From Eledone cirrhosa (taxonomy: Eukaryota): a stretch of 64,000 bases of DNA. Position 1 is the first letter of the stretch. The number at the start of each line of letters is the position of its first letter. The notes beneath the pieces were generated by a model, which saw nothing but the letters and a program-made list of their open reading frames with translations, was not told where the DNA came from and ran no database searches. The stretch covers positions 58,714,001-58,778,000 of the forward strand of contig OZ024747.1 in the NCBI GenBank assembly GCA_964016885.1, given 5' to 3'. The position numbers and the translations under genes are program-made. Shown piece by piece: positions 421 through 58,207 of the stretch.

Positions 421-638
421 ATAGGAAAATGTTTAACCCCGACGGCAGAGCTCAAGCTGTTTCGGGGGCTATTTCTGGACTTAATTAGTCCAGAAATTTA
501 GTCCAGAAATAGCCGTCGAAACGGGTTGAGCTCTGCCGTCGGGGTTAAACATTTTCCTATTACCCACTCTACTACCCTAAGTATTGAGTACTCTGGTGCG
601 TTATGGTCCATCTGATTCCTTACCACACCTCCTTAGTT
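421..638 (+). mobile_element. Solo 3' end of the PLE family at 11314-14707, with inverted 5' duplication
   Basis: 498-638 matches the reverse complement of ~11314-11455. 421-481 is an inverted copy of 500-560. Flanked by (TA)n on both sides. Confidence 0.85.
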
Positions 639-1649
639 ATATATATATATATATATATATATATATATATATATATATACACAAATATATATATAAGGAT
701 CAATCCATGGAACAAATATATCATAAAAGCATGCTATGAAAACTAATGCAGCAAATATATAGCCTGATCTTTAAAAACATTTTAGATTTTTTCTTATTCC
801 CTGAAGTCTTTATTTGGCATTCTTTGTCATTCTGTTATAAAATATTATATTTTCTATATAGGGTTTATTTTATAAATAATGCGCTTGCAGATATAGCCGA
901 ATTTGCAGAGCCTTTAGTACATTGGATAAAATATTTTACGGTATTTCTTCCGTCTTGCTGAGTTCAAATCCTGCTGAGGTCAAGTTTGTATTTAATCCTT
1001 TCTGCAGTCGGTAAAAATTGCCATACCCTTTATTGTGCTTTTTCCTTTCTATCACCCTTTCTCCTTCTCTGGAAGAATTCGGCTGTGTTCAGACATGGAC
1101 AGGGAGGAGCTCATACTGGTTTTAAAATGTCTAAGCAATGTTGTACGCCATTATGGTGCCTCTACGGCTTCCCAAGTATTTATATATCCCTAAATATGTA
1201 CATACTTGTAGATAAATGTTCGGTGTCGTCTGCCATTATAGTTTAGTTCCTCCATTACTTTATCCCGGAATTTTATTTGATTCCTTGTATTAACCTTTTG
1301 TTACCATATTTCTAATGAAATGTTCTTCCTAATGAAATACTCTGTCTTTATTTTCAAATGATTTTGAAAATATTCAAGAATTTAGAGTGATTTAGTAATA
1401 TAATTTGGTGTTTGAAGCGCAACTTAACAGATTTTGTTACATAAAACATAATGAAAAGTATTTAGTTATATCTAAAACTATAAAATAAACAGTTTTGTAA
1501 CAGAGAAAAGGGAACAGTTACAGATGGCATGATATCCAAAGGGTTAAAATGCCACGTGATCAGCTTAAATGGTTTCTTTATTTTAATAATATTTCGACAA
1601 ATAATCATTGTTTATTTCATATTTATTACATCTTTTCTATCCTAAAATT

Positions 1650-1860
1650 ATCTCCCATATTTCGAAGACTTTCGAAAATTTTACAAGCAGCTACATTCAA
1701 CCTTATAGGTCACGTATTCTAGTTAATGTTGACCTTCAATTTGCATATTCTAAGAACTTCAGGAAAGCCCATCATGTACGAGGTTTCATTTAAGAAAATT
1801 AAATTCCGTTAAAACTTTGATGAAATTAATATGAAGAAAACTAAATATCTGAACAAAATA
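1650..1860. repeat. Local duplicated segment, copy 1 (copy 2 at ~3682-3885)
   Basis: Shared core GTTAATGTTGACCTTCAATTTGCATATTCTAAGAAC...CGAGGTTTCATTTAAGAAAATTAAATTCCGTTAA in both copies. Confidence 0.8.
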
Positions 1861-2266
1861 CTAATAGAAATCAACAAGGAATATGAGAAGAAAACCTTGG
1901 AAGGTGACAAATACAACACCTAAAATAATAACAGTAAAAACAAATAACAACAACTCCATCCTCAACAAATAACGCAACAGAACAGCTCACATCCTGCACA
2001 AGACATTATTGATTTAGTAACACCAATGAATCAATTTCCACACACAATACACTTTCTGTACAATAAACACTTGACAAAATGAAAAAACAAGATTCACATG
2101 TACACTACAAAATTGATCCATAAAAAAGTAATACAACTCATATTATATATAACATAGATATAACAAACAGAACAAACACGAAAATAACATAGGAAATATG
2201 ATGCTAAACCCTATAACAAAGCCCCATAGTTTATGTATGAAAAACGTTCCAATTATGACCACCCTA

Positions 2267-2486
2267 TACGAGGTCGTGCTGAAAAGTTCCTGGTTGATCG
2301 CTACTGCAGAAGCCTGCTTTGAGGTTCAAACTTCCGAGTTCTTTTTACAGGGTTCAGAAAAACTGAAGGACCGTTGCTATAAGTTTGTGAATCTTAAAGG
2401 GGAATATGTTGAATAAAATGATAATTAACTGAACCTCCTGTATTTTCTTTTACCCCAAACCAGCAACATTTCAACACACCCTGGTA
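2267..2486 (+). mobile_element. Non-autonomous mariner/Tc1 element (MITE) with transposase C-terminal remnant
   Basis: TA-flanked imperfect TIRs CGAGGTCGTGCTGAAAAGTTCCTGG / CCAGCAACATTTCAACACACCCTGG. Internal frame FFLQGSEKLKDRCYKFVNLKGEYVE* resembles the mariner transposase C-terminus. Confidence 0.8.
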
Positions 2487-3113
2487 GATTATTCAGACAC
2501 TTACTAGTTCTCTGTCAATATGGGTAGGTGGGGGATTTAATTTATCGTTTAACTGAACTATATACTGAATAAATGTACTTGTAAGTAAGTTAGTATTGCA
2601 CAGACTCAAGCATGTAACTTAATTCTTAGAAAGAATCAACGTGACAAAACCGGGCCTTTAACTAAAAATTATATTTATTCGACATGCTTCAACAAAGTCT
2701 CCATCTATCCAAATTCACTAAAAACTATTTAGGCCAATCCTAGCCCTATGGTAAACAGTTACTCGCGCAAGAAACTAGACTACGTAATTTAATCAGGGAG
2801 CCCGTGATTGCGAAACGAATTTCCTACGTGCTCGTCTTAGTATCGGAATATTTGATGAATATTTCCTTTCCGAGACGGGATTTGCCCGTGTCTTGTAGGT
2901 CGACCTATTATGCAGATACATTCTCATGGAGAGGGACACCTATTAATGAGGTAATGATGTTTAATTTAATCCACTACTGCCTCGTATTTTGCCACATCTG
3001 TGATACTGTATTGGATTTAAAACGTGTCATACGAATATACAGTCTAACCATAAACATATTTTAATATTTTTTCTTAGTCTATGCAGGTTTATATGTATTC
3101 TACACCCGTCTGC

Positions 3114-55215: not shown

Positions 55216-56514
55216 AGGGCCTCCGAAATAGGTAAGAGAATGGAAGGTAGTCTCGAACTTGAAATCTAACCCAAATGCCCATAGTAGCTACTGAACGGCA
55301 TGAGCTGAGATCTGACCCAAATATCTGCAGTGGTGGTTCCTAAAGGCCACGAGTTAGAATTAGACTGAGTGAAGGATTATTTATTCGATCCAAATAAGCC
55401 AATGCGTAATTTGAACTCAAAACGCAAAGAACTGAAAAAGTCACCTCATTCGACAATCAAACAATTACTCTAACCATCCACTATGTTCGAGTACTTTATT
55501 TTATCAACCCTGAAATGGAGAAAGTTCAAGTTGACATCAGAAGTCTTAAAACTCGAAGAACAAGAAATATTAGGAACAAATTACGCAAGATAGTTTATCC
55601 TACGTTCTAACAACTCTACCAATTCGGTGCCTGGACCCGTTAATGTTTAAAGGAAAGTTTTACTCGACAATATTATATCGATTGTTATTGAATTATATTC
55701 AAGGTCATATTTTTTCCAATGGAATGGTGGAATGGTTTAGTTACGATTGCATCTACTTAAGTGTACTGAAGAAAGAATCAATAATTGTTCTTTATAGATC
55801 AAGGATTGATGAAAGACAATATAATCTCCATATGGATTTAAATTCAGAAAAAATGAAAAGGAAAGTTCAACATTTTATTGAATAAGTAAGCTCCAACATT
55901 TCCTCAACGTTTTCACTTCTCTCTCTCTCTCTCTCTCTCTCTCTCTCTCTCTCTCTCTCTCTCTCTCTCTCTCTCTCTCTCTCTCTCTCTCTCTCTCTCT
56001 CTCTCATCTACCTTGATATATATTTGTTATCGTAATTATTTTAACTCAGAACATAGAAGTCAAGGCCAATAATGCATAATAAGGATGCCTTGCATAGGCA
56101 CAAGGCATTAATGAATTGTAGATGAAACGAAAACACGATTATATGGACCCCTCTATTACTTAAAGAGTATTTTATTTCATTGGCCTCTGAGAAGATAAAA
56201 TATAAGTTGACTTCGTGGAAATTTGAGTACAGAGCGTAAATTGTCGAATCAAACATAGTAAAATAGGGAGAAAATAAGTTTTTACTGAAAATAAATGAAA
56301 TATTAACTATAATTTCACATATATCATCATTATATGTATCGGAATTTTTGTTTGTTTATAATAATTGTGCCCGAGCATGGCCTCAGCTTTCGGCTGGAAG
56401 ACGTAATAGAGTAATAGAGTAATGTAATTTGAGAACTTGGTTGCATAGACAAATGATTAAAGAGATACTAGCTGAGACCATATTATTAATTACTATTATT
56501 TCCAGCACAATGAG

Positions 56515-56728
56515 GGCAGTGGATTGGCAGAATCGGTAGAATGTCGGTCAACATTATTTGTGGCATAGAGTTACGGCCCTTTACGTTCTTAGTTCAAATA
56601 CCACCGAAGTGAGCTTTATCGTTTATACTTTCTGGGTCGATAAATAAAGCACCAGTAACGCAGTGGGGTCAATTGAATTGACTTTCCCTTCCCTAAAAGT
56701 TGCAGGCCTTGTGCCTAAATCAGAAGCT
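56515..56728 (+). mobile_element. SINE
   Basis: GGCAGTGGATTGGCAGAATCGGTAG...AGTTCAAATACC...GGCCTTGTGCCTAAA. Confidence 0.8.
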
Positions 56729-57480
56729 ATTAGATCAAGCACAATGAAATATCTATCAGGCTACAGTATAAAATATGACCTACATTATGTATAAATTGTA
56801 TTCAGTATACTTTGCATGAAACTCAGACATGTTTACGTAAATAAGGCGATAAAGAATAAATATGCTAGAACATAAATATATTGGGATATATATATATGAA
56901 TGTATTTATATATGTATAATAATATATATATATATATATATATATATATATATATATATATATATATATATATATATATATATATATATATATATATATA
57001 TATATATCATATATATATGTACATATATATCTATATATATACATATATACATATGTACATATATATATATCTATATACATATGCCCATATATATGTATAT
57101 ATATATATATGTGTGTGTACATATATATGTATATATATATATATATGTGTGTACATATATATGTATATATATCATATACAAAAAATTCAGCTAGATCTGA
57201 ATGGGCTGTTGAAGCGGCTGGAGCTCAGCCGTCGAGGTCCTGGATCTTTCATATCACCTACTGGTGAGTAAGGGTCTAACTAGTCTTTACCGCTTCCATT
57301 CTGATATGTATATATGTATATATATATATATATATATATATATATATATATATATAGACATATATGTATATATGTATATATATATATATATATATATATA
57401 TATATATATATAAACATATATGTATATATGTATATGATGTATATATGATATAACATATACATGTATCATATATATATAAA

Positions 57481-57787
57481 CAAAGTATTGGAGATCGATT
57501 GACGCAACACCAAGCGATTAGCGAGCTCTAGACCTACCAGATCAACGAAACAATTGTCAGCACTGTGAATAAAGCCCTTATTGTACAGCCAACCATGTTA
57601 CTCTTATTTCTTGAATTATTATTACTCCAAGTATAACCTACATAGAAATCACCGCGAACTCGCTGCATCACTATGGAAGCGACTTGTTGAGTCAAACTTA
57701 GCCATACGTTAAAACCATCCACAACACGGAGTACTCTAACTGGACTACCTCTAAGTGGATTACCTACAACGATAACTTGTTATCCCG
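57481..57787 (+). mobile_element. 5'-truncated PLE-tail cassette (family J) with hammerhead 3' half
   Basis: GAAAC-AATT-GTC (57547-57558), then AATAAA, then GAGTACTC 51 nt before (TA)n. Confidence 0.55.
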
Positions 57788-57837
57788 TATATATATATAT
57801 ATATATATATATATATATATATATATATATATATATC

Positions 57838-58207
57838 TTTAGGTTTGTTGGTTCACCACTGGATAGAATTCCGTATGGTCAATCTTGGTGTAATATTGTG
57901 GAGAGTACTCAACGTATTGCAGTTCACCTTTCTTCGTTTGTGTAGTTGGTGGTGCGAATACGGAGTTAATTATCAATAAAAATAACAGGAGGCTGGACTG
58001 GTGTAAATCCTTGAAAGGTTTATTATACTTGTGGAGAGTACTCAACGTAGTGCAGTTCACCCGTCTTCGTTTGTGTAGTTGGTGGTGCGAATACGGAGTT
58101 AATTATCAATAAAAATAACAGGAGGCTGGACTGGTGTAAATCCTTGAAAGGTTTATAATAAACCTTTCAAGGATTTACAACAGTCCAGCCTCCTGTTATT
58201 TTTATTT
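57838..58207 (-). mobile_element. PLE-tail-like cassette with ~132-bp partial tandem and terminal inversion
   Basis: ~57897-58028 repeats at ~58029-58157, and 58158-58207 is inverted. Carries TTGAGTACTC on the minus strand. Confidence 0.7.

Follow-up and report, generated by a model that had tools for sequence, protein, structure and literature searches.

Background

Why do otherwise dissimilar DNA cassettes that end at (TA)n runs carry the same octamer, GAGTRCTY, some tens of nucleotides before that end? The question is raised by a stretch of 64,000 nt from Eledone cirrhosa (GenBank assembly GCA_964016885.1, contig OZ024747.1, positions 58,714,001 to 58,778,000; here the window), part of a TA-rich genome of 3.0 Gb. 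The window contains one long open reading frame (ORF) of a Penelope-like element (PLE), one broken PLE ORF and many short cassettes between TA runs. An initial annotation, made from the letters alone, proposed that the octamer is a cis signal for recognition by the reverse transcriptase (RT), for 3'-end definition or for priming. Here we report that the octamer cassettes are stubs of PLEs of the Hydra clade and that the octamer forms the 3' half of a small bulged hairpin, predicted at the RNA level as NCUC-stem-loop-stem-UN-GAGN-RCUY, where the bulge is 2 nt long. The hairpin occurs twice in the element leader, and insert ends lie just 5' of one or the other copy.

How PLEs choose their template and start point is an open problem: the single in vitro study reported two internal starts but identified no signal. 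Craig et al. (2021, PMC8557442) characterize the Hydra clade by an RWK-type motif, DKT, CxCX5C, CxxC and CxH motifs, a C-terminal GIY-YIG domain, a hammerhead ribozyme and insertion into (TA)n. They also describe a 5'-truncated arm in inverted orientation and a tail, quoted as 30–40 nt, that is present at one end.

Results

Position of the octamer before (TA)n

All nine octamers listed in the initial annotation are present at their places and on their strands. The distances from the end of the octamer to the first (TA)4 run are 44, 44, 82, 63, 39, 71, 47, 51 and 66 nt for the sites at 586, 11366, 15401, 22485, 27838, 28108, 42178, 57729 and 57910, respectively; at 15401 the element itself ends about 70 nt past the octamer and is followed by a CA repeat. 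Positional enrichment near TA over background, on which the proposal of a signal depended, held in the window, in 1 Mb outside it and genome-wide. In the window, 7 of the 14 GAGTRCTY matches lie 40–95 nt ahead of a TA run, compared with 5.9% of eligible positions (p ~ 6 × 10−6). The 1-Mb sample comprised 100 stretches of 10 kb, 20 flanking the window and 80 spread over large contigs; its 1,755 TA flanks contained 60 matches at 30–89 nt and 17 at 100–249 nt. On the forward strand of the whole genome, 59,346 octamers occur 38–68 nt before (TA)8 compared with 1,736 for a reversed-pattern control, which, doubled, puts the number of sites in the order of 100,000.

More than one family is behind this signal, as 103 sites fell into 41 clusters, 17 of them multi-copy, although one family contributes many copies (1,893 candidates). 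The surrounding tails had been described as dissimilar apart from those at 586 and 11359. These two indeed form one family (586/11366), but 15401 and 57903 also share one loose cluster.

The octamer as half of a bulged hairpin

The sites themselves are real, but the conserved unit is larger than the octamer first taken as the shared feature. With families lined up on the octamer, 14 of the 17 multi-copy clusters have ACTC 10–65 nt 5' of it. The upstream ACTC pairs with GAGT, a short stem follows, and the 3' strand of that stem stops two bases ahead of GAGT. The full hairpin is present at seven of the nine cited sites; the site at 15401 is truncated and lacks the 5' half, and that at 57729 lies outside the hairpin register. 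A descriptor of the structure gave 70 matches, 56 of them 28–100 nt before TA, compared with 5, 3 and 3 in shuffled sequences. When matches near TA were collapsed by family, a bulge of size 2 was found in 33 families and sizes 0, 1, 3, 4 and 5 in 5–9, while size 2 far from TA was found in 10. Control 3-bp cores TGC, CAC, GAC and CGT also scored at bulge 2; on inspection TGC, CGT and GAC proved mostly microsatellite-like or singletons. After a complexity filter the CTC core retained 16 families compared with 3 and 0; the corresponding values for an ATA core were 31 compared with 11 and 13.

The stem covaries. In a set of 85 sequences for which only the 3' half and the CTC nearest to it had to be present, with no requirement for pairing, Watson–Crick pairs occur at stem positions 1–3 in 76, 55 and 52 sequences, with shuffled means of 43, 24 and 22. 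The closing pair gives a weak signal in this set (75 compared with 67.5) because it is nearly always G-C. In the 30 families with a U-first bulge it is A-U in 12, G-C in 11 and G.U or a mismatch in 7, and U-A pairs were found elsewhere. A second pairing analysis agrees, but on an alignment selected for pairing. Inside the stems G.U exceeds A.C by 16 to 6 (p = 0.026), a modest bias that favours a sense RNA as the form in which the motif acts. GAGT is the variant of the first hairpin in this genome, and GAGC is commoner elsewhere. One hammerhead-bearing family has a GTTC/GAAC helix with a TT or TA bulge (L035, on the minus strand past the hammerhead core near offset 8716, and L026, on the plus strand ahead of 7409), which suggests that the core helix can drift.

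Several other identities were considered and rejected. A coding constraint (Glu-Tyr/Cys) does not account for the octamer because in the full family the ORF begins about 145 nt past it. GAGURCUY can pair with itself if G.U pairs are counted, as a palindrome or dimer signal would, but the GAGC variants retain ACUY, which breaks the palindrome, and the upstream half covaries. The consensus fits neither a splice site nor hammerhead stem III. In some Hydra families hammerhead stem III is also ACTC/GAGT, but the present hairpins are not hammerhead parts: no CUGANGA/GAAA core adjoins them, the base after GAGU is often G, and they lie 54–88 nt and more downstream of the hammerhead cut site, without the GAA and CUGANGA core. 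Rfam covariance models gave no match on a 351-nt leader at E up to 10, though a motif of 25–45 nt may be too short to score; on the window, the best 150 of 203 Rfam matches included only low-complexity ones below the gathering threshold.

The host element and its leader

The long window ORF has RWR as its RWK-type motif (the W is 98% conserved in alignment A2), no match to GxKF/Y, and DKT in place of DKG. After YRDD follow CxCX5C, YIG, CxxC and CxH in that order, with GIY-YIG at the C-terminus. A predicted hammerhead in the pseudo-long terminal repeat (pLTR) reads as a U3-A8 core, a variant described in PMC4209133; C3-G8 cores are predicted in other cassettes and related loci. Insertion into (TA)n, tandem and inverted structure and a one-sided tail complete the Hydra-clade traits. 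The assignment to the clade is motif-based, and the likeness to published Hydra proteins, Hydra-1_Obim included, was judged by eye. A Naiad/Chlamys PLE, which has an N-terminal endonuclease and no hammerhead, does not fit an element with a C-terminal endonuclease and a hammerhead. Pfam assigned no family to the window ORFs.

The ORF family is young (834 candidates, best matches 99–100% identical). In copies that continue past the TA junction the order is hammerhead, hairpin 1, tail, hairpin 2 and, about 70 nt on, the ATG; across leaders the distance from hairpin 2 to the ATG is about 20–70 nt. The minimum free energy (MFE) fold of the full leader holds both hairpins, with low ensemble weight. 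A search pattern of two octamers plus ATG gave 906 matches, some of them satellites, compared with 97 for a control. Most of 30 such loci proved to be leaders of additional families, with ORFs that start in the manner of Hydra proteins.

An AlphaFold2 model of residues 1–629 (mean pLDDT 90.7) is closest to telomerase TERT (Z 17.2, rmsd 4.2, 300 residues aligned), the alignment starting at model residue 1 and TERT residue ~250. Because this TERT stretch is the end of the TERT RNA-binding domain, the conserved basic N-terminal motifs of the Hydra-clade protein (K11, R35, R37, W38 and R39) are candidates for hairpin binding, offered as a lead only.

Insert ends and the two hairpins

Insert ends were mapped on ten reference leaders, using two 19-nt zones that extend from −4 to +14 nt of each hairpin start. 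In the 1-Mb sample, 85 copies matched and 72 were TA-ended. The ends of 67 of these 72 lie in the zones, 26 at hairpin 1 and 41 at hairpin 2, so that zones holding 64 of the 310 TA dinucleotides of the leaders (21%) contain 93% of the ends. The commonest junction classes lie 3–9 nt before a hairpin and share 1–6 nt with the TA run. The spacing of the hairpins varies from 76 to 99 nt between families, yet in these classes the end stays at the same 3–9 nt. Of 19 second copies in metagenome contigs, 13 have their end in one of the zones.

The two sites are used together. Among 37 head-to-head (fold-back) pairs (28 from the 1-Mb sample, 5 from loci picked by likeness to one arm and 4 from the window, scored with wider zones), 33 have one arm ending at each site; site 2 was never used twice, site 1 was used twice in one pair, a mis-paired neighbour, and three pairs have an unplaced end. 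Long copies were found in 17 regions. Both outer ends are visible in seven of these, and all seven are multi-kilobase inserts with one end of each kind. One array consists of three seamless units of ~3,544 nt and a partial unit. Hairpin 2 is absent from every terminal copy in these regions.

Two consequences follow for the original proposal. A tie of the motif to the 3' end or RT start is supported by position, but not the linear reading in which an octamer 40–70 nt upstream sets the end; the end lies at a fixed 3–9 nt from hairpin 2, which is downstream and uncopied. Stubs show only hairpin 1, 40–90 nt before the TA run, because hairpin 2 is never copied into the end, and that octamer-to-TA distance is the spacing between the two hairpins. 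For the Hydra clade, the optional PLE tail is thus the sequence between site 1 and site 2, including hairpin 1.

The hairpin pair in other hosts

An alignment of homologues led to 76 loci at 36–43% identity, mostly from marine metagenome contigs. In 25 metagenome loci a hammerhead and the ORF start could both be placed; two hairpins lie between them in 20 and one in 5, and none was found in 25 ORF controls. Three or four of the five one-hairpin loci have a degenerate second copy, and one is a false hammerhead call. The 25 loci have a median protein identity of 48% and form 21 clusters at 60% protein identity; their leaders form 12 separate clusters. A covariance model built from 72 of 80 metagenome hairpin sequences, and from these only, had six cited sites in its top eight window matches, missed the other three (15401, 28108 and 57729) and gave 37 matches in 800 kb.

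By eye, the hairpin is clear in three of six published Hydra consensuses, these three being from coral and sea cucumber: Hydra-1_Ajap has two at its 5' end, and Hydra-2_Amil and Hydra-2_Ajap have one each at the 3' end. It is degenerate in Hydra-1_Obim and Hydra-1_Crog, and Hydra-1_Amil gave no clear call. In three loci (L174, L185 and L189) the rare U-A closing pair is found in hairpin 1 and hairpin 2 alike, a sign that the copies within one leader may coevolve with each other and with the protein of their element. A genome search for one hammerhead family gave no matches.

Features of the window

The coordinates of the hairpins and associated features are collected in Table 1. The element with hairpin 1 at 11359..11386 ends near 11315, 3–6 nt short of where hairpin 2 would lie. 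By eye, the upstream ACTC half is retained in about 7 of 11 relatives of the stub at 15364..15478. In the family at 57480–57787 an internal copy (L238) has hairpin 2 just beyond the end.

Table 1. Hairpins, stubs and ORFs in the window (cited site, octamer position in the initial annotation)
Feature	Position	Strand	Remarks
Fold-back PLE stub in (TA)n	424..637	.	Arm ends: minus, before hairpin 1; plus, at 637, where hairpin 2 (absent) would follow
Hairpin 1, long arm of fold-back stub	566..593	+	ACTC, 4-bp stem, TT bulge, GAGT, ACTC; cited site 586; adopted in MFE fold; covariance-model match
Hairpin 1 in 3' pLTR of 5'-truncated Hydra-clade element	11359..11386	-	Cited site 11366; covariance-model match
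Predicted type I hammerhead, U3-A8 core variant, upstream of hairpin 1	11408..11499	-	Read from sequence
Hydra-clade PLE ORF (RT and C-terminal GIY-YIG) without first 29 codons	12635..14704	-	
5'-truncated stub, 3' half of hairpin 1 only	15364..15478	+	Cited site 15401; read by eye
Hairpin 1, 3-bp stem, TC bulge	22478..22501	-	Cited site 22485; fold-back stub ~22415-22660, hammerhead core at 22563 (+)
Hairpin 1, 3-bp stem, TT bulge	27823..27845	+	Cited site 27838; fold-back stub ~27708-27884, mirror hammerhead cores near 27757; covariance-model match
Hairpin 1, 5-bp stem, TC bulge	28085..28115	+	Cited site 28108
Second, frameshifted Hydra-clade ORF	38098-40230	+	36-46% to P0002 in pieces
Hairpin 1, 6-bp stem, TC bulge	42171..42214	-	Cited site 42178; fold-back stub ~42124-42628, one arm ends before hairpin 2, the other before hairpin 1; covariance-model match
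True hairpin 1 of family 57480-57787	57624..57692	+	5-bp stem, TT bulge, closes at 57689-57692, then CAAA, not RCTY
Cited octamer outside the 3' half of any bulged hairpin, inside tail	57729..57736	+	
Hairpin 1, long stem-loop, 6-bp stem, TT bulge	57903..57966	-	Cited site 57910; covariance-model match
Tandem duplicate (133-nt period) of the 57903..57966 hairpin	58036..58099	-	Covariance-model match

Some further observations concern the same families. In the 586/11366 family the tail, from one hairpin to the other, contains a short upstream ORF of ~11 codons (window 596–642, plus strand; internal copy L122), and hairpin 1 of the 586 family, with its octamer, makes up a 58-nt tandem satellite (L207–L212, G000:C1:14.25 Mb). 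Another fold-back stub of the 22485 family, at 17150–17450, has one arm per site and hairpin 1 deleted. The hairpin model has an extra match outside the cited sites at 34160–34199 (minus strand, E ~0.02), a GAGC-type copy near a TA field.

The second ORF is interrupted near its end by a copy of an abundant ~190-nt repeat with duplicated flank, and no hammerhead was seen after it. This repeat, which has a tRNA-like box and is probably a short interspersed element, occurs at 1–97, 40222–40415, 53612–54008 and 58214–58400. Long tandem repeats occupy 22992–27046 (periods of 39–258 nt, and 76 nt × 24), with minus-strand open frames of up to 948 codons rich in Pro, His and Thr; they may represent a satellite or an exon of mucin- or extensin-like type.

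Discussion

What was directly seen is that leaders hold two hairpins with covarying stems, that ends fall just 5' of them with one site per arm, and that junctions share 1–6 nt of TA. These observations lead us to propose that each hairpin positions the RT at one of two internal starts, the tail being the stretch between, and we think this is probably correct. Each hairpin would be an RNA docking site that sets the RT start 3–9 nt upstream of it, with the element protein binding the CUC/GAG helix, the UN bulge and the RCUY next to the helix. The endonuclease would nick both strands of the (TA)n target, and the two DNA 3' ends would anneal to the UA-rich stretch ahead of each hairpin and prime two cDNAs. 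The one from site 1 would have no tail and the one from site 2 would have the tail and hairpin 1. The cDNAs may then run off, break, or continue round a circular or multimeric template before joining head to head. Protein binding, two-strand nicking, dual priming and cDNA joining are all inferred from sequence patterns. The absence of hairpin 2 from terminal copies implies that the tailed end needs a template continuing into a leader, which could be the front end of the RNA itself, a tandem transcript or a circle; the seamless arrays longer than one unit fit such a template. Taken further, the repeated hairpin may be an initiation code of Hydra-clade elements, in which two RTs on two hairpins would prime simultaneously from both nicked strands of (TA)n and could copy beyond one unit length on a circular or multimeric template. 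This larger proposal is tentative, and we would not yet expect it to hold in full.

A number of observations weigh against the proposed role of the hairpins. Six of the 19 metagenome self-comparisons end outside the zones, and copies within families are not independent. The zones ahead of both hairpins are UA-rich, so that some of the end clustering could result from annealing to the target. The hairpins are weak alone, the MFE fold adopting the motif in six of nine motif-holding pieces, mostly with z of 0 to −1.5. In this genome the bases that follow the helix do not always read RCUY, and hairpin 2 often has no more than one or two pairs in its stem. In a first pass, 14 of 50 metagenome loci with upstream sequence had no hairpin, although these were not checked singly, and with a strict hammerhead descriptor, which missed most Hydra hammerheads, only 3 of 30 clusters had a hairpin downstream. 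Finally, a retrozyme-like, hammerhead-bearing tandem and inverted unit of 465 nt (L285, G000:C7:38651310-38654437) has two preferred TA ends at a distance of ~68 nt from each other, and by eye it lacks a CUC/GAG hairpin. With such a family the motif must be clade-bound and not universal, even if a rule of two starts is general.

Fixed distances and two end classes would also be expected if the transcript were cut or terminated a few nucleotides upstream of each hairpin, with ordinary priming at the new 3' ends, and in the Poseidon study (PMC11167929) RNA-seq read ends coincide with RT starts. We nevertheless regard RNA processing as unlikely: a cut at site 1 would split the leader from hairpin 2, yet 33 of 37 pairs use both sites; the Poseidon RT, in the same source, starts internally in vitro whatever the 3' extension; and no Rfam ribozyme or processing family matches the leader. 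The motif might instead be read as DNA or single-stranded cDNA by the GIY-YIG endonuclease, cutting near each copy to resolve an intermediate. Stem covariation is compatible with single-stranded DNA as well, Craig et al. (PMC8557442) attribute the tail to endonuclease resolution, and recognition by the Drosophila virilis Penelope endonuclease required the tail, as cited in PMC11167929. The excess of G.U over A.C speaks against a DNA motif; hairpin 2, being beyond the end and absent from terminal copies, must sit on a longer template; and the TA common to junction and target is what priming predicts. We give this explanation little credence.

It is similarly improbable that the hairpins serve mainly translation or packaging control, with the protein binding its own leader and the ends clustering through flanking UA-rich single-stranded patches. 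Both hairpins do lie in the 5' leader, the second close before the ATG, and UA-rich sequence precedes each, but the zones attract far more ends than their share of leader TA dinucleotides, and this explanation does not predict the strict pairing of one site per arm. Chance, or functionless descent from a few abundant families, would fit the many copies of the largest family and the out-of-register site at 57729. It is contradicted by the family-collapsed tests, by covariation kept at the median protein identity and among the separate leader clusters of the metagenome loci, and by the coral and sea cucumber consensuses, and we consider it extremely improbable.

The elements, their hammerheads, TA targeting, the tail and internal initiation were already published. 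The window elements share with the Hydra clade, as far as the consulted sections of PMC8557442 describe it, the protein motifs, hammerhead, (TA)n insertion, inverted arm and one-sided tail. Their tail is longer (76–99 nt, and 54–82 nt in metagenome loci), and the hairpin pair is undescribed in those sections, though the consensuses given there hold hairpins unremarked. Published PLE hammerhead leaders include the same leader and the U3-A8 variant, and more-than-unit reverse transcription has been proposed for tandems. For Poseidon PAc, from the green anole, Frangieh et al. (2024, PMC11167929) report that reverse transcription begins at two internal sites, one at each border of the tail, and requires RNA 3' of the start; targets are AT-rich, and cutting and extension take place on both strands. 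Our proposal for the Hydra clade resembles this in the two internal starts, two-strand cutting and AT-rich targets. Poseidon PAc differs in belonging to another clade and in having its starts inside the ORF, in an AC-rich stem-loop; the sections consulted name no shared motif or repeated hairpin. We found no description of the hairpin pair or its tie to both ends in Rfam or in the literature searched, including the consulted passages of PMC8557442, PMC11167929, PMC4209133, PMC3846280, PMC13282606 and bioRxiv 2026.07.22.740005, most subscription papers and Repbase being outside the search.

Hepadnavirus epsilon, long interspersed element (LINE) 3' stem-loops and telomerase CR4/5 with the template boundary are stem-loops that recruit an RT. 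By analogy, the present motif is likewise a small bulged or looped helix that would place the template, its binding by the RT being our proposal. Unlike those stem-loops, it occurs in two copies that would define two starts on opposite target strands. It has no sequence or Rfam relation to them, and priming would be by target DNA, not by protein or tRNA. On the sequence evidence, the conserved cis element is real and new for PLEs, while its general kind, an RT-positioning stem-loop, is known.

These results place a motif of 25–45 nt, with an exact relation to both insert ends, in this genome, in marine metagenome contigs, and in coral and sea cucumber elements. The hairpin marks element boundaries for annotation, and it invites comparison with the way telomerase, the sister enzyme, holds its RNA. 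The optional PLE tail was noted before without a cause, and the hairpin pair would explain it. If the proposed initiation code is true, a single rule would account for the pLTR and the tandems as well as for the head-to-head arms and the one-sided tail, and a telomerase-related RT could be directed to any RNA by means of the hairpin.

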